Source: Corallococcus sp. Z5C101001 (GTDB taxonomy: Bacteria > Myxococcota > Myxococcia > Myxococcales > Myxococcaceae). Taken from it: DNA of 64,000 bases. The notes beneath the pieces were generated by a model. That model was not told where the DNA came from and made no database searches. It saw nothing but the letters and a program-made list of their open reading frames with translations. Position numbers and translations under genes: made by a program. Within the stretch, counting starts at the first letter, position 1. Each line of letters opens with the position of its first letter. Positions 676 through 6,416 of the stretch are shown here, piece by piece. The stretch covers positions 699,940 through 763,939 of the forward strand of contig NZ_VKLU01000005.1 in assembly GCF_007352635.1 (NCBI RefSeq). The letters are read 5' to 3'.

Positions 676-1659
676 TTGCCGCAGTGGGAGGGGTGGGCGT
701 CGGTTAAGTTGACGGGCGTGAGCCCCCCTCGACTGACTTCGGAGATTCGCTCGTTCACCAGCGTGGAGGACGCGGCGCGTCGCCTGGAGGCGGTGGGCTA
801 CCTGTCCTCGCCAGAGATCGCCACGGCGGTGTTCCTCGCGGACCGGATGGGCAAGCCCATCCTGGTGGAGGGCCCGGCGGGCGTGGGCAAGACGGAGCTG
901 GCCAAGGCCCTGGCGCAGGCCCTGGACCGGACCTTCCTCCGCCTCCAGTGCTACGAGGGCCTGGACGAGGCCAAGGCCCTCTACGAGTGGGAGTACGCCA
1001 AGCAGCTGCTCTACACCCAGCTGCTCAAGGACAAGATCGGGGAGATGACCCAGGGCACCCGGACCCTGGCGGAGGCCGCGGACCGGCTCGCGTCCGGCGA
1101 CGCCGTCTTCTTCTCCGAGCGCTTCCTGCTCCCCCGCCCCATCCTCCAGGCCCAGCTGTCGGAGACCCCGGCGCTGCTGCTGGTGGACGAAATCGACAAG
1201 GCGGATCCGGAGTTCGAGGCCTTCCTGCTGGAGGTCCTGTCTGACAACGCTGTCACGGTGCCGGAGCTGGGCACCATCAAGGCCCGGCACATCCCGCGCG
1301 TCATCCTCACCAGCAACAACGCCCGCGAGCTGTCCGACGCGCTCAAGCGCCGCTGCCTGCACCTGCACATCGACTTCCCGGACCGCGAGCGCGAGCTGCG
1401 AATCGTCCGCTCGCGGCTGCCGGAGGTCCCCCAGGTGCTGGCCGAGCAGGTGGTGGAGGCCGTGGCCGCCATCCGCGCGCTGGACTTGAAGAAGGCCCCC
1501 TCCATCAGTGAGACGCTGGACTGGGCGCAGAGCCTGGCCCTGCTCAACGCCGAGGCGCTGAGCGCGGACGTCGTCGCCGCCACGCTCAACCTCGTCCTCA
1601 AATACGAGGGCGACATCGAGAAGGCCCGCGCCAACCTCCCGCAGATCGCCCAGGCCTGA
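676..1659 (+). CDS. MoxR-family AAA+ ATPase (CbbQ/NirQ/NorQ/GvpN-like)
   Basis: Walker A ILVEGPAGVGKTELAKALA, Walker B LLLVDEIDKA, typical MoxR C-terminal helical region; 327 aa. Confidence 0.85.
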   Translation: MPQWEGWASVKLTGVSPPRLTSEIRSFTSVEDAARRLEAVGYLSSPEIATAVFLADRMGKPILVEGPAGVGKTELAKALAQALDRTFLRLQCYEGLDEAKALYEWEYAKQLLYTQLLKDKIGEMTQGTRTLAEAADRLASGDAVFFSERFLLPRPILQAQLSETPALLLVDEIDKADPEFEAFLLEVLSDNAVTVPELGTIKARHIPRVILTSNNARELSDALKRRCLHLHIDFPDRERELRIVRSRLPEVPQVLAEQVVEAVAAIRALDLKKAPSISETLDWAQSLALLNAEALSADVVAATLNLVLKYEGDIEKARANLPQIAQA

Positions 1660-1809: not shown

Positions 1810-2757
1810 ATGAGCTCGACCTCATCCTCCGTGCTGCGCGCCGAACACATCTGGCTCGATGGGAAGCTGATGAAATGGGACGAGGGCAACGTGCACGTGA
1901 TGACGCACGCCCTCCACTACGGCCTGGGCGTCTTCGAGGGCATCCGCGCCTACAAGACCCATGATGGCCGGCTCGCCGTCTTCCGGCTGCGCGAGCACAT
2001 CCAGCGCCTGCTCGACTCCGCGCACATCATCATGCTGCAGATGCCCTACACCGAGGACCAGCTGGTGGAGGCGACGCTGGAGCTCCTGCGCAAGCAGAAG
2101 CACCTGTTCGCCAACGGCGCCTACCTGCGCCCGGTGGCCTTCATGGGCGACGGCGCCATGGGCCTGGGCGCGGTGAACCCCACCCGCGTGGGCATCACCG
2201 CCTGGGACTGGGGCGCGTACCTGGGCGACAAGGGCATGCGCGAGGGCATCCGCGCCAAGGTCAGCTCCTTCACGCGCAACCACGTGAACGTGAACATGGT
2301 GCGCGGGAAGATCACCGGCCAGTACGTCAACTCCATCCTCGCCAAGCGCGAGGCGGTGATGGCCGGCTACGACGAGGCCATCCTCCTGGACATCAGCGGC
2401 TTCGTCGCGGAGGCGTCCGGCGAGAACATCTTCATGGTGAACAAGAAGGGCATCATCAAGACGCCGCCCCTCTCCTCGCCCATCCTCGACGGCATCACCC
2501 GCGACACCGTGCTGCGGCTGCTGCGCGACAGCGGCCGCGCGGTGGAGGAGGTGACGTTCACCCGCGACGCCCTCTACATCTGCAACGAGATCTTCTTCAC
2601 CGGCACCGCCGCGGAGATCACCCCCGTGCGCGAGGTCGACAACCGCCAGGTGGGCACCGGCAAGCCCGGCCCCATCGGCCAGTTCGTCCAAGACACCTAT
2701 TTCCGCGTCGTCCGGGGCCAGGAGCCCCGCTATGCGGACTGGCTGACCTACGTTTGA
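1810..2757 (+). CDS. ilvE: Branched-chain amino acid aminotransferase
   Basis: Full-length class IV aminotransferase fold signature (EGIRAY, catalytic-lysine region MVRGKITGQYVNS, ...FFTGTAAEITPV); 315 aa. Confidence 0.9.
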   Translation: MSSTSSSVLRAEHIWLDGKLMKWDEGNVHVMTHALHYGLGVFEGIRAYKTHDGRLAVFRLREHIQRLLDSAHIIMLQMPYTEDQLVEATLELLRKQKHLFANGAYLRPVAFMGDGAMGLGAVNPTRVGITAWDWGAYLGDKGMREGIRAKVSSFTRNHVNVNMVRGKITGQYVNSILAKREAVMAGYDEAILLDISGFVAEASGENIFMVNKKGIIKTPPLSSPILDGITRDTVLRLLRDSGRAVEEVTFTRDALYICNEIFFTGTAAEITPVREVDNRQVGTGKPGPIGQFVQDTYFRVVRGQEPRYADWLTYV

Positions 2758-2816
2758 GGACAGTCCGTTGACGTGAAGTCCCGGCCGCTGGGGGAATCGG
2801 GTAGAACCCGTACCCG

Positions 2817-4154
2817 ATGCCTCCCGCCGGCCACACGTACGACGACAATCCGTTCAAGCTGGAGAACCCGTCCATCCTCGACATCGCTCCCTTGGAGCCG
2901 AAGTCGCTGGAGGACACGGGCCTGAGAATGGGCCTGCTGGCGGACCTGGGCCTCAAGTTCCTCTACTACGCCGGCACGGGCACGGGCGTGGCCATCGCGG
3001 AGAGCATGTGCCTGCCCTGGTCCGGCGTCGTCGAGCACGTGGTGGACTTCCTCGCCGCGGAGAAGCTCGTGGACCTGCGCGGCGGCAAGGGCTTTGGCCG
3101 CGCGTCCGTGGAGTTCGCCCTCACGGAGAAGGGCCGCGAGTACGCCCGCGACGCCCTCACCCGCTCCACCTACGTGGGCCCCGCCCCGGTCCCCATCGAG
3201 CAGTACAACGCCCTCATCAAGAGCCAGACGGAGGAGACGCCCGTCGTGGGCCAGGAGGACCTGCTCATCGCCCTGGGCCACCTCACCGTGCCCGCGGAGC
3301 TGATGGACAAGCTGGGCCCGGCGGTGAACTCCGGCCGCTCGCTCTTTCTCTACGGCCCCCCGGGCAACGGCAAGACGAGCCTCGCGGACGCCATCTCCCA
3401 CATGTTCGGCGGGGAGGTCTTCGTCCCGCACTGCCTCGAAATCGACAACCAGATCATCAAGGTCTTCGACCGGATCATCCACACGCCCGTGTCGCTGGAG
3501 ATTGGCCGCGACGCCAACGGCCGCCGGCAGACCTTCGAGATGGACAAGCGCTGGGCGCTCTGCCGGCGCCCCTCCGTCGTGGTGGGCGGCGAGCTGACGC
3601 TGGAGACGCTGGACCTCATCTACTCGGAGAGCACCCGCTTCTACGAGGCGCCGTTCCAGGTGAAGGCCAACGGCGGCATGCTCCTCATCGACGACTTCGG
3701 CCGCCAGAAGGTCCACCCCACGGACCTGCTCAACCGGTGGATCGTCCCCCTGGAGAAGCGGGTGGACTACCTCACCCTGCACACGGGCAAGAAGTTCGAG
3801 ATCCCGTTCGATCAGCTCCTCGTCTTCTCCACCAACCTGGACCCGAAGGAACTGGTGGACGAGGCCTTCCTGCGCCGCATCAAATACAAGATTGAAGTCG
3901 GCAATCCGGACGAGGAGTCCTACCGGGAGATCTTCCGCCGGGTGTGTGAGGCGGCGGGCATCCCCTACGTCGACCAGGCCGTCACCTACCTGGTGGAGCA
4001 CTACTACAAGCCGCGCAGCATGGAGATGCGCTCCTGTCACCCCCGGGACCTCGTGTCCCTCATCCGAGACGCTGCCCGATACCGGCAAATCCCGCCCGCC
4101 CTGTCCAAGGACCTGCTCGACCAGGCGTGCGAAGTGTTCCTGGTGAATCTCTAG
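2817..4154 (+). CDS. AAA-type ATPase with N-terminal winged-helix-like domain (uncharacterised family)
   Basis: N-terminal about 170 aa wHTH-like region (VVEHVVDFLAAEKLVDLRGGKGFGRASVEFALTEKG), then P-loop LFLYGPPGNGKTSLADAI, Walker B MLLIDDFGRQ, sensor-1-like VFSTNLDP; 445 aa. Confidence 0.7.
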   Translation: MPPAGHTYDDNPFKLENPSILDIAPLEPKSLEDTGLRMGLLADLGLKFLYYAGTGTGVAIAESMCLPWSGVVEHVVDFLAAEKLVDLRGGKGFGRASVEFALTEKGREYARDALTRSTYVGPAPVPIEQYNALIKSQTEETPVVGQEDLLIALGHLTVPAELMDKLGPAVNSGRSLFLYGPPGNGKTSLADAISHMFGGEVFVPHCLEIDNQIIKVFDRIIHTPVSLEIGRDANGRRQTFEMDKRWALCRRPSVVVGGELTLETLDLIYSESTRFYEAPFQVKANGGMLLIDDFGRQKVHPTDLLNRWIVPLEKRVDYLTLHTGKKFEIPFDQLLVFSTNLDPKELVDEAFLRRIKYKIEVGNPDEESYREIFRRVCEAAGIPYVDQAVTYLVEHYYKPRSMEMRSCHPRDLVSLIRDAARYRQIPPALSKDLLDQACEVFLVNL

Positions 4155-4178
4155 TCGGGTTTTATTTGTTCCAACCGC

Positions 4179-4198
4179 GCGGAATTTCTAGAATCCGC
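4179..4198. promoter_or_regulatory. Imperfect palindrome GCGGAAT-TTCTAGAA-TCCGC in GC-poor intergenic region upstream of Fic-like gene; possible operator
   Basis: Inverted repeat read directly (TTCTAGAA core flanked by GCGGA/TCCGC); local GC drop (gggttttatttgttcc). Confidence 0.25.
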
Positions 4199-4274
4199 GT
4201 GCCGTTGTACCGCCCGGCGCAGCCTCTGAGAAAAAGCGCCCGGGGCGGGCCGGGGCGAGAAGGAGCCGCAGTCC

Positions 4275-5114
4275 GTGAAGGAACGCTACCAGGACATCGA
4301 CGAGAAGAACGAGCAGCTGCGCGAGTACCTTGAGATCTACAAGGACAAGCAGCCCGCGCGTGAGTTCCTCGACCGCTTCGAGATGTCGTGGATCTACCAC
4401 GACGCCGCGCTCGAAGGCGTCGTGTACACGCACCAGGAGCTGATGGCCGCGCTCTTCCCCGAGCGCACCGCGGCCGAAGCCTCCATGATCCCGGTCGTGT
4501 TGGAGATCCGCAACCACAAGGCGGTGGCGGACTACATCCGCGAGGAGGCGCAGGGCGCGAAGAAGCAGTCCGCGCTCACGCTCACCACCATCAAGCGGAT
4601 GCACGACCTCTTCCTGGGCAACACGCCGGAAGCCCTGGCCGAGCGCGCGCGGATGGAGCGCCGCGAGCGCACGGAGAAGGAGCTGGCCAAGGAGCGCGAC
4701 CGCGCGGGGCTGCGCAAGGACATGCCCCTGCACCGCACCTACTTCCACGACATCACCCAGCCGGCGAAGATCCAGGCCCGGCTGGAGAAGCTCGTGGACC
4801 ACACCGCCAGCGCGGAGTTCCGTGAGTTCCACCCCATCAAGCAGGCGGCGGTGGTGCAGCACGAGTTCCTGCAGATCTTCCCGTTCACCGAGCACAGCGG
4901 GAAGGTGGGGCGCATGTGCAGCAACCTCATCCTGCTGCGCAACGGCTACATGCCCGCGGTCATCCACTCCATCGACCGGCAGCGCTACTACGAGTCCTTC
5001 CGCCTGCCCGTCGCCACCTTCCGCACGGTGCTGATGGACGCGATGGAGAACTCGCTCGACAACGGCGTGAAGTACTTCCGCGACCTGGGCCGCAAGTACA
5101 AGACCGTCGAGTAG
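4275..5114 (+). CDS. Fic/DOC-fold protein with degenerate catalytic motif (FPFTEHSGKVGR in place of HPFx[DE]GNGRxxR); probable pseudo-enzyme
   Basis: GTG start with GAAGGAG RBS 9 nt upstream; Fic core helix HEFLQIFPFTEHSGKVGRMCSNLILLRNGYMP; N-terminal IYHDAALEGV helix typical of Fic; 279 aa. Confidence 0.7.
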   Translation: MKERYQDIDEKNEQLREYLEIYKDKQPAREFLDRFEMSWIYHDAALEGVVYTHQELMAALFPERTAAEASMIPVVLEIRNHKAVADYIREEAQGAKKQSALTLTTIKRMHDLFLGNTPEALAERARMERRERTEKELAKERDRAGLRKDMPLHRTYFHDITQPAKIQARLEKLVDHTASAEFREFHPIKQAAVVQHEFLQIFPFTEHSGKVGRMCSNLILLRNGYMPAVIHSIDRQRYYESFRLPVATFRTVLMDAMENSLDNGVKYFRDLGRKYKTVE

Positions 5115-5141
5115 CCGGTACCGGCGGACGGCTTGCCGGGG

Positions 5142-5170
5142 GAGCGGGCGCCGCGAAGGCGCCCCGCTCT
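5142..5170 (+). terminator. Hairpin GAGCGGGCGCC-GCGAA-GGCGCCCCGCTC downstream of Fic-like gene
   Basis: Inverted repeat with GNRA-type loop, followed by TTCCGTG; between convergently unrelated genes. Confidence 0.4.
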
Positions 5171-5294
5171 TCCGTGAAGGCCGGGGGGTTCGTCGACACC
5201 ATTGGGGTGCTGCAACCACCCTGTCCGGAACGTTACGGGGAGAACATCCGACTTCTCGAATCCCCGTGCCGGAGGAAGTAAAAGAAGAACCCCC

Positions 5295-6416
5295 ATGCCT
5301 GTGACCCCCTCCATCCAAAGCCGCCGCTCCCAGCTGCCCGCCGGCGGCGAGCTCACGGAGCCTCCGCCAGCGCGGCTCGCGAAGCTGCCTGCCGCCGACA
5401 AGCTGGGCCGCCTGCTGCAAGTGGCCAAGGGCCACCGCCGGGCGCTCATCCTGACGCACGACAACCCGGACCCCGACTCCATCGCGGCGGCCGTGTCGCT
5501 CGCCCACCTGCTGGAGCGCAAGGCGGGGCTCGAGGCCCACGTCGGCTACGGCGGCATCATCGGCCGGGCGGAGAACATCGCCTTCGTGCGCGTGCTGCGG
5601 CTGCCGGTGTCGCACGTGTCCCAGCTGGACTTCAGCCAGTACGACCTCTTCGGCTTGGTGGATACGCAGCCGCCGGTGCGCAACCACTCGCTGCCCCCGC
5701 GCTTCCGCGCGGACCTGGTGGTGGATCATCACCCGCTGCGCGAGGAGAGCCTGCTGTCGCCCTTCGCGGACGTGGGCGGTGACTTCGGCGCCACCTCCAC
5801 GATGCTGGTGGAGTACCTCCGGGCCGCGCGCCTGGAGCCGTCCGTGGAGATCGCCACCGCGCTCTTCTACGGCATCAAGGCGGACACCCGGGACCTGGGC
5901 CGCGAGACGACCCAGACCGACGTGGACAGCTACCTGTGGCTGTTCCCCCGCTGCGACAAGCAGCTGCTGGGGCAGATCGAGCACCCGGAGCTGCCCGCGC
6001 GCTTCTTCCAGCTGTTCCACACGTCCATCGAGAAGGCGAAGGTCTACGGCACCGCCATCATCACCGACCTGGAGGAGGTCTACTCCCCGGACATGGTGGC
6101 GGAGGTCGCCGAGCGGATGATGTTCCTCGAGGGGATGAAGTGGTCCCTGGCGTACGGGTCCTTCCGCAACCAGCTGTTCCTGAGCCTTCGGGTGAAGGAC
6201 CGGCGCATGAACGCGGGCCGCCTCATCCGCGAGCTGTGCGAGGACCTGGGCGGCTCCTCCGGCGGCCACGGCAGCATGGCGGGCGCACGGCTGCCCCTGT
6301 CCGGCAGCGCCAACAAGCGCAAGGCGCTCAAGCGCGAGGTGGTGTCGCGCTTCCTGGAAGCCTTCGGCGTCGCCGAGGAGCGGCCGGTGTCGCTGCTGTC
6401 CGCGCAGGACACGTGA
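5295..6416 (+). CDS. nrnA: DHH-family phosphoesterase; bifunctional oligoribonuclease / pAp phosphatase NrnA-like
   Basis: Motifs ILTHDNPDPDSIAAA, VVDHHP (DHH), GGGHGSMAGAR (DHHA1 GGGH); ATG at 5295 with AGGAAG RBS; the ORF-track start at 5202 is an upstream extension. Confidence 0.85.
   Translation: MPVTPSIQSRRSQLPAGGELTEPPPARLAKLPAADKLGRLLQVAKGHRRALILTHDNPDPDSIAAAVSLAHLLERKAGLEAHVGYGGIIGRAENIAFVRVLRLPVSHVSQLDFSQYDLFGLVDTQPPVRNHSLPPRFRADLVVDHHPLREESLLSPFADVGGDFGATSTMLVEYLRAARLEPSVEIATALFYGIKADTRDLGRETTQTDVDSYLWLFPRCDKQLLGQIEHPELPARFFQLFHTSIEKAKVYGTAIITDLEEVYSPDMVAEVAERMMFLEGMKWSLAYGSFRNQLFLSLRVKDRRMNAGRLIRELCEDLGGSSGGHGSMAGARLPLSGSANKRKALKREVVSRFLEAFGVAEERPVSLLSAQDT

Follow-up and report, generated by a model that had tools for sequence, protein, structure and literature searches.

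A conserved His-less clade of FICD-like Fic-fold proteins in Myxococcota and its AAA ATPase neighbor in Corallococcus

What does a Fic-fold protein do once its catalytic histidine has been replaced, and does the ATPase encoded next to it take part? Research on Fic proteins has dealt almost exclusively with AMPylating toxins, effectors, and regulators of chaperones. In this study, we examined a gene pair in a 64,000-nucleotide stretch of the Corallococcus sp. Z5C101001 genome (contig NZ_VKLU01000005.1; this whole stretch is called the window), where a gene for an AAA ATPase is followed by a gene for a Fic-fold protein with a degenerate motif. A preliminary description made from the DNA letters had proposed that the two could form a novel regulatory or defense module. 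Both open reading frames (ORFs) were found on the plus strand at the positions it gave, and the features that the argument needs first are the following.

2817 to 4154, plus strand: AAA ATPase gene, 445 amino acids (ORF call, Pfam PF00004, alignments with spastin and p97)
Between 4154 and 4275: ATPase-Fic spacer of 120 nucleotides (nt), with both genes on the same strand
4275 to 5114, plus strand: Fic-fold gene, 279 amino acids, GTG start (Pfam Fic, FICD match, structural model)
4398 to 4418, plus strand: inhibitory-helix-type motif HDAALEG, residues 42 to 48 (alignment with FICD IYHTVAIEGN, in which E47 corresponds to FICD Glu234)
4878 to 4913, plus strand: degenerate Fic motif FPFTEHSGKVGR, residues 202 to 213 (residue-for-residue alignment with the FICD motif)

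The Fic fold that had been proposed for the downstream protein was borne out by profile, sequence, and structure comparisons. The protein scored above the curated threshold of the Pfam family Fic, PF02661 (E value of 5.4e-11; 43.6 bits against a cut-off of 24), and a phmmer search of the PDB matched it to human FICD (E value of 4e-12), with FPFTEHSGKVGRMCSNLILLRNGYMP aligning with a 26-residue FICD stretch. An AlphaFold model built on 55 diverse homologs reached a mean predicted local distance difference test (pLDDT) value of 92.2 and a predicted template modeling (TM) score of 0.90. Using Foldseek, this model was superposed over its full length, about 270 columns, on FICD/HYPE crystal structures (E value of 3.5e-10; TM scores of 0.76 to 0.78). 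Toward the N terminus, DAALEG (residues 43 to 48) aligns with FICD TVAIEG, so that the Glu and Gly of the class II pattern (S/T)xxxE(G/N) are conserved and the S/T position is occupied by Asp. The degenerate motif FPFTEHSGKVGR is followed by LILLRNGYMP.

In FICD, His363 serves as the general base and Asp367 as the Mg ligand; the loop is anchored by Phe365 and stabilized by Asn369, and the GNG backbone provides the anion hole. Arg374 contacts the ribose and the gamma-phosphate, and Glu234 of the inhibitory helix competes with this contact (PMC4342408). The alignment places F202 of the Fic protein at His363, F204 at Phe365, E206 at Asp367, S208 at Asn369, G209 at Gly370, R213 at Arg374, and E47 at Glu234, and the equivalent of the anion-hole GNG is H207-S208-G209. 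Phe in place of the catalytic His and H-S-G-K in place of G-N-G-R, both read from the bare sequence in the preliminary description, are therefore confirmed by the alignment with FICD. Compared with a canonical AMPylase, the protein has neither the His nor the G-N-G anion hole and retains the second Arg of the motif (R213).

The replacement of the His is not peculiar to this strain. None of the 120 closest homologs (73 to 99% identity; Corallococcus, Myxococcus, Hyalangium, Stigmatella, Cystobacter, and Archangium) has the canonical motif, and all of them carry FPF[TSAPQ][ED][HNQ]SGK[VIL][GA]R; the source protein itself is 99% identical to a C. exercitus protein. When 1.84 billion cluster representatives were searched exhaustively with HMMER, 2,177 matches were obtained, 93 of them below 1e-30. 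Residues were counted in an alignment of the best 150 of these 2,177 representatives, of which 143 to 146 were informative at the motif positions and 116 to 118 at the inhibitory helix.

Position 202 (FICD His363): F 92, Y 36, W 5, H 2; His in only 2 of 143 representatives
Position 203 (Pro364): P in 142 of 144
Position 204 (Phe365): F 105, W 21, Y 11
Position 206 (Asp367): E 34, K 34, D 15, R 11; acidic in 49 of 145, basic in 45
Position 208 (Asn369): S 109, T 13, N 9 (S in 109 of 145)
Position 209 (Gly370): G in 141 of 146
Position 210 (Arg371): K 90, R 26
Position 213 (Arg374): R in 139 of 143
Position 47 (Glu234): E 99 and D 11 of 118
Position 48: G in 112 of 116

The resulting clade consensus is [FY]P[FWY]xxxSGK[VI][AG]R. 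Across the clade the first Gly of G-N-G is variable and the last one is kept. Judged by these counts, position 206 is not under selection for acidity, although the source protein has E206 there. Conserved motifs specific to the clade are SWIYHDxALEG, YRKDxPLHRxYFHEI in the flap region, and H(S/A)x(D/E)RQRYYE. The His-less motif is that of a family under purifying selection with a remodeled cleft and not that of a decaying gene. Every named clade member that was found belongs to Myxococcota (Myxococcia, Polyangia, and unclassified Myxococcota), and those beyond the Myxococcaceae-type group, by which we mean Myxococcaceae sensu GTDB in all counts, are annotated as Polyangia bacterium or Myxococcota bacterium.

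In Myxococcaceae-type members, the Fic protein also has a charged helical insertion of about 25 amino acids (PEALAERARMERRERTEKELAKERD; residues 118 to 142, window positions 4626 to 4700). The insertion is missing from most distant clade members, and the pLDDT of the model is 63 to 81 in this segment.

The gene product can thus be described as a member of a large FICD-like (class II) Fic-fold clade whose active site was remodeled and then conserved. The aligned residues show that the general base has been lost together with a conserved metal ligand and the greater part of the anion hole, while the loop-anchoring Phe, the central Gly, the last Arg of the motif, the inhibitory Glu, the flap region, and a YY helix by the nucleotide pocket are kept. 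Canonical His-dependent AMPylation would accordingly be lost, and the old cleft would still be a functional surface, which probably binds a phosphate-bearing ligand such as a nucleotide or a modified partner. Contact with this ligand is predicted to run through the S-G-K turn and R213, with E47 as a gate. The function of the protein would then be that of a non-catalytic binder, regulator, or adaptor, or of an enzyme that works by non-canonical chemistry, and its gene would be a stand-alone gene of the core genome with its own promoter-like element. Since the His-less motif is so strongly conserved throughout the clade, it is no one-off anomaly, and the loss of AMPylation together with a repurposed fold, which had been predicted for this one protein, is a reasonable expectation that extends to the whole clade. 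For the full combination of lost AMPylation, a cleft retained for a phosphate ligand, a non-catalytic binding role, and a stand-alone gene, we estimate a probability of roughly 55%.

Several points weigh against this interpretation. The predicted ligand binding is deduced purely from which residues are retained, and the taxonomic spread of the clade rests on a handful of named database entries. The ATPase gene adjoins the Fic gene in about 73% of the Myxococcaceae-type loci and in a more distant Myxococcales metagenome-assembled genome (MAG), which would be compatible with a lineage-specific link between the two. Finally, the invariant polar residues H42, R147, H153, R154, Y156, H158, H231, and R235 could form a new catalytic site. 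The Fic fold would in that case be a genuine enzyme with new chemistry, in which His, Arg, and Tyr residues of the clade around the old cleft replace the general base, for example for the removal of a modification, phosphotransfer, or glycosyl transfer. These eight residues and Y238 are invariant or nearly so and belong to the flap, to the inhibitory helix, or to the helix after the motif. There is also a precedent in AvrB, a Fido fold without a Fic motif that is reported to be a rhamnosyltransferase (PMC10866546), and according to a 2015 survey, variant motifs that are conserved may be a sign of novel functions (PMC4454073). However, the poor conservation of the Mg-binding position, acidic and basic at nearly equal frequency, speaks against the usual metal-dependent nucleotide chemistry, and the inhibitory Glu, which blocks productive ATP binding in FICD, is still present. 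We regard new chemistry as a tentative and rather unlikely alternative to a non-catalytic binder.

In about 22 of 149 representative clusters of the clade, the protein is extended by an N-terminal tail of 100 to 430 amino acids that is rich in Ala and Pro and contains 17 to 38% Lys plus Arg. These tails hold AKKAPAKK-type repeats and resemble histone H1; they occur in clusters P0280, P0290, P0295, P0297, P0304 to P0307, P0311, P0312, and P0316, and further tailed clusters include P0325, P0336 to P0338, and P0348. Their composition suggests an association of the Fic clade with nucleic acids or another polyanion.

We then come to the second part of the question, the role of the ATPase. If the two genes formed a functional regulatory module, the ATPase, with its probable DNA-binding winged helix, might remodel the Fic protein or load it on DNA. 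Their position on one strand, only 120 nt apart, fits this idea, as do the H1-like tails, which would suit a nucleic-acid setting. To follow the pairing across genomes, 80 orthologous Fic loci from species-representative genomes (64 to 99% identity) were compared by tblastn, 78 of them with enough upstream sequence. The loci came from a contig profile scan with 14 closer sequences, which returned only Myxococcaceae-type loci, and distant contexts were sampled singly. In 57 of the 78 informative loci, the ATPase gene immediately precedes the Fic gene, which again is in line with a module; the place of the ATPase gene is taken in the other 21 by ilvE (13 loci) or by another gene (8 loci, e.g., one for a 639-amino-acid membrane protein in L079), which is not. 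In 78 of the 80 loci, a DHH phosphoesterase gene comes after the Fic gene at a distance of about 1.3 kb at most. The DHH gene is thus a more constant neighbor than the ATPase gene, and among downstream neighbors in Myxococcaceae-type genomes it is the most constant one.

More distant relatives point in both directions. In L095 to L097, from the more distant Myxococcales MAG, the ATPase is only 76% identical and the order ilvE-AAA-Fic-endonuclease IV-DHH is kept, which favors a lasting connection. In L092 to L094, on the other hand, an ortholog of the ATPase (77% identity) starts 18 nt after ilvE and precedes a GNAT acetyltransferase gene, with no Fic gene within 5 kb.

L092, 5001 to 6362: ATPase ortholog

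The arrangement in L092 to L094 may mean that the link between ilvE and the ATPase gene is tighter than that between the ATPase and Fic genes. No member of the ATPase family adjoins the Fic gene in any of the nine distant clade members sampled (P0254, P0246, P0250, P0280, P0258, P0243, P0304, P0464/P0438, and P0499), of which P0246 is little informative because its contig is only 1 kb long. The neighbors in these nine include genes for a nitroreductase, an alpha/beta hydrolase, an outer-membrane efflux protein, an M23 peptidase, a Ser/Thr kinase, and a 5'-nucleotidase as well as argH-lysA. No AAA-Fic fusion was present among ten long clade members scanned with Pfam; one of the ten has an N-terminal NAD(P)H-hydrate dehydratase domain, and the other extensions gave no Pfam domain.

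The ATPase gene is a separate and even more conserved gene, which part of the Myxococcaceae-type lineage carries between its ilvE and Fic genes. Both genes are individually tied to ilvE and yet separable from each other, as expected of inherited gene order; their adjacency is lineage-specific, and the two do not make up an obligate system. The conserved pairing that a novel module would call for did not hold up, and with the frequent replacement of the ATPase gene, its occurrence without a Fic gene, the lack of fusions, the more constant DHH neighbor, and a conserved promoter-like element of the Fic gene's own (see below), we consider a functional module of the two proteins improbable.

Some further observations concern the distant loci and the sampling. 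On Polyangia-like contigs, the Fic-like gene is followed at a distance of 13 to 26 nt by an argininosuccinate lyase gene and then by a gene of the diaminopimelate decarboxylase type, and another Myxococcota MAG has a 5'-nucleotidase gene after its Fic-like gene. Downstream partners thus vary with the lineage and are possible operon partners.

L098, 6001 to 8244: locus of the Fic-like gene and its possible operon partners
L099, 6001 to 8215: the same
L101, 6001 to 8636: the same

One contig, L020, is titled Comamonas sp. KCTC 72670 and has a full Myxococcus-type locus at 86 to 88% identity; it is probably mislabeled or contaminated.

The spacer may bear on how the Fic gene is expressed. The preliminary description had noted a GC-poor spacer with a palindrome centered on TTCTAGAA. 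The first 46 nt of the spacer indeed have a GC content of 48%, compared with 70% for the window, and TTCTAGAA occurs once in the window, at 4186 to 4193 (0.04 occurrences expected by chance). As a conserved feature, the palindrome did not persist: in the Archangium and Cystobacter loci, the hexamer reads TACAAT and TTCTAGAA becomes TTCTACAA, by which the palindrome is broken and the -10-like hexamer kept.

4166 to 4194, plus strand: promoter-like element, TTGTTC (4166 to 4171), 17-nt spacer, TAGAAT (4189 to 4194); contains TTCTAGAA
4260 to 4265, plus strand: ribosome-binding site AAGGAG, 9 nt ahead of the GTG; kept together with the GTG in most aligned orthologous spacers

The promoter-like element is kept in 56 of 80 related loci. 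The aligned core of the spacers consists of TTGT(C/T)C, 17 nt, TA(G/C)AAT, a GC-rich stretch, AAGGAG, and GTG, and the conserved feature overall is TTGnnn-N17-TA[G/C]AAT followed by the ribosome-binding site. Loci without the ATPase gene have TTGCnn-N17-TAnnnT-like elements upstream of the Fic gene. The element in the window matches the generic consensus at 8 of 12 positions, which is below the threshold of a generic promoter scan, and was seen only by cross-species alignment. Because the -10-like hexamer is conserved where the palindrome is not, we infer that the "palindrome" is the -10 region of a sigma-70-type promoter of the Fic gene itself.

The ATPase had been described as a winged helix-turn-helix (wHTH) protein with an AAA domain. 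Its AAA part is well founded: the protein matches PF00004 (26.2 bits against a cut-off of 21.2), can be aligned with spastin and p97 over the Walker A and sensor-1/Arg-finger regions, and contains an AAA domain of the classic clade in which about 90 amino acids are inserted between Walker A and Walker B. It is 75 to 97% identical across Myxococcaceae-type genomes.

3354 to 3377, plus strand: Walker A GPPGNGKT, residues 180 to 187 (read from the sequence)
3678 to 3695, plus strand: Walker B MLLIDD, residues 288 to 293, with Asp-Asp for the usual Asp-Glu (assigned from position and pattern)
3825 to 3878, plus strand: sensor-1 and arginine-finger region FSTNLDPKELVDEAFLRR, residues 337 to 354 (aligns with the spastin stretch that includes NRPQELDEAALRRF)
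2928 to 3161, plus strand: probable winged helix-turn-helix, residues 38 to 115 (AlphaFold and Foldseek)

In an alignment of 31 orthologs, G180, G183, N184, G185, K186, and T187 of Walker A are invariant and both Pro residues at least 90% conserved; the five Walker B residues from L289 to D293 (LLIDD) are likewise invariant, with M288 conserved to at least 90%. The Asp in place of the catalytic Glu in Walker B may make ATP hydrolysis slow or regulated, and the hydrolytic competence of the protein is uncertain. The sensor-1 Asn of STN and the LRR of LDEAFLRR align with spastin. Compared with the classic AAA proteins spastin, Vps4, and p97, the protein shares Walker A, the sensor-1 Asn, and the LDEAFLRR arginine-finger region, and it differs by its winged-helix-like N terminus, the insert between Walker A and B, and the Asp-Asp Walker B. 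The wHTH part of the earlier assignment found weaker backing. The N-terminal segment was modeled as H-E-H-H-E-E-H (alpha-beta-alpha-alpha-beta-beta) with a pLDDT of 70 to 86 within an overall poor model (mean pLDDT of 49.9), which is poor because the available homologs are 75 to 94% identical. All of the top 50 Foldseek matches of this segment in the PDB are winged helices of the MarR, PadR, or AspA type, with E values of only 2e-4 to 1e-2, and no Pfam match to the N-terminal domain was found. An N-terminal winged helix is thus plausible but weakly supported. No solved structure of a close relative of the ATPase was found.

Could the pair nevertheless be a toxin-antitoxin or anti-phage system of the ATPase plus Fic/Doc type, as had been suggested? 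The surroundings bear on this. On the plus strand, the order of genes is MoxR-type ATPase, ilvE-type aminotransferase, AAA ATPase, Fic-like gene, DHH/DHHA1 phosphoesterase, and a NifS-like gene.

676 to 1659, plus strand: MoxR-type ATPase gene
1810 to 2757, plus strand: class IV aminotransferase gene, ilvE type
5175 to 5281, plus strand: 3' remnant of an endonuclease-IV-type (AP_endonuc_2) gene, a neighbor outside the ATPase-Fic pair
5295 to 6416 (start approximate), plus strand: DHH/DHHA1 phosphoesterase gene (Pfam DHH and DHHA1)

For the DHH gene, the ATG at 5295 was chosen as the start, since homologs align only from about residue 28 to 31 of the ORF onward. The remnant at 5175 to 5281 aligns with the final ~100 nt of an intact 277-amino-acid ORF in L001 (8868 to 9701). 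C. exercitus SDU142, the closest genome, and L095/L096 have an intact AP_endonuc_2 gene between their Fic and DHH genes; in the source strain and in L002-type genomes it is deleted, with ~100 nt remaining ahead of the DHH gene. Antisense ORFs at 2748 to 4088 and 4188 to 6269 were set aside as spurious long ORFs typical of high-GC DNA, because the plus-strand ORFs have homologs, Pfam domains, and a GC content at third codon positions (GC3) of 95 to 97%.

The GC3 of the Fic gene is 97.5% and that of the neighboring genes 95 to 97%. Since such values prevail throughout the surrounding genes, the ATPase and Fic genes look native and core-chromosomal, and horizontal acquisition was rejected on the grounds of native GC3 and synteny across genera. 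A core-chromosomal, syntenic locus also argues against a defense system, and no integrase or other mobile-element gene lies within ~10 kb of the pair in the window. Searches of phage genomes gave only two remote relatives with 25 to 26% identity.

Matches to defense models do exist. In PADLOC, the ATPase has a weak match to IetA (E value of 9e-11, ~40 bits, in two short stretches), and the Fic protein matches PDC-S04 (E value of 1e-16, 58 bits) and SoFic (E value of 5e-11); in NCBIfam, the ATPase scores 37.5 bits with IteA. These scores are far below the cut-offs, with 37.5 against 510 bits for IteA and 14 against 550 bits for the SoFic equivalog, and no gene for an IetS-type protease is adjacent, as an IetAS system would have it. 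The weak IetA and TRIP13 matches of the ATPase reflect the common AAA core, and the SoFic match in PADLOC reflects general similarity at the level of Fic proteins. To our knowledge, every known Fic toxin needs the catalytic His, which is missing here, and the inhibitory helix is internal, with no small antitoxin present to supply one. A class I FicTA system is likewise not what the locus encodes: besides the missing His, the upstream gene codes for a 445-amino-acid AAA ATPase and is separated by a 120-nt spacer with a promoter-like element. Doc proteins have the motif HxFx(D/N)(A/G)NKR and no flap, whereas the protein studied here has FPFTEHSGKVGR and its best structural matches are of the FICD type. 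With housekeeping neighbors (ilvE, MoxR, DHH, NifS-like), native GC3, and generic matches to defense profiles only, a toxin-antitoxin or anti-phage function of the pair is very unlikely.

Among characterized proteins, FICD/HYPE and class II AMPylases such as BT_2513 (PDB 3cuc) come closest. They have the same full-length fold with the inhibitory-helix Glu-Gly and the flap; also common to both sides are the anchoring Phe, the central Gly, the final Arg of the motif, and the LxxNxxLL helix after it. The protein from Corallococcus differs from them in having Phe for His, x-S-G-K for G-N-G-R, and Asp where the inhibitory motif has S/T. Its clade does not conserve the Mg-binding Asp/Glu position, and the protein is without a TPR or other accessory domain. 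Degenerate Fic motifs have been described for Bartonella Beps such as BepC, for Campylobacter fetus Fic proteins, and for the Doc D2 clade with Gln for His (PMC8401265, PMC5651007, PMC4454073), so the concept is not new. New or non-catalytic functions were proposed for such Fic/Fido proteins (PMC8401265, PMC5651007, PMC4454073; for AvrB, PMC10866546). Like the protein studied here, Beps, C. fetus Fic, Doc D2, and AvrB have a Fic/Fido fold under selection with a non-canonical or missing catalytic motif. They are, however, secreted effectors or toxin-antitoxin components of pathogens and plasmids, whereas the present protein is cytoplasmic-looking, single-domain, and encoded in the core genome of free-living Myxococcota.

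The 2015 motif survey distinguished five motif classes, none of which matches [FY]P[FWY]xxxSGKxxR (PMC4454073), and no paper on a myxobacterial or Myxococcus Fic protein or on this motif class was found in the open-access literature. NCBIfam has no specific model for the protein, and database records name it only "Fic family protein." It is conceivable, though we hold this with low confidence, that the [FY]P[FWY]xxxSGKxxR proteins are an undescribed functional class in Myxococcota, namely His-less housekeeping proteins that sense or bind a nucleotide or phospho-ligand, or carry out new chemistry, on the nucleoid or on nucleic acids. The H1-like tails, the adjoining endonuclease IV and DHH genes of Myxococcaceae-type genomes, and the winged-helix AAA ATPase, a neighbor in part of that lineage which may cooperate with the Fic protein, are the reasons for considering a nucleic-acid setting.

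The importance of the locus is moderate, because it opens no new defense or toxin system and the link to the ATPase is weak. For the Fic family, a large, conserved core-genome clade without the catalytic His would be a clean example of a bacterial Fic pseudoenzyme, or else of new Fic chemistry, and Myxococcus xanthus, which has an ortholog of the Fic gene, offers a tractable model.

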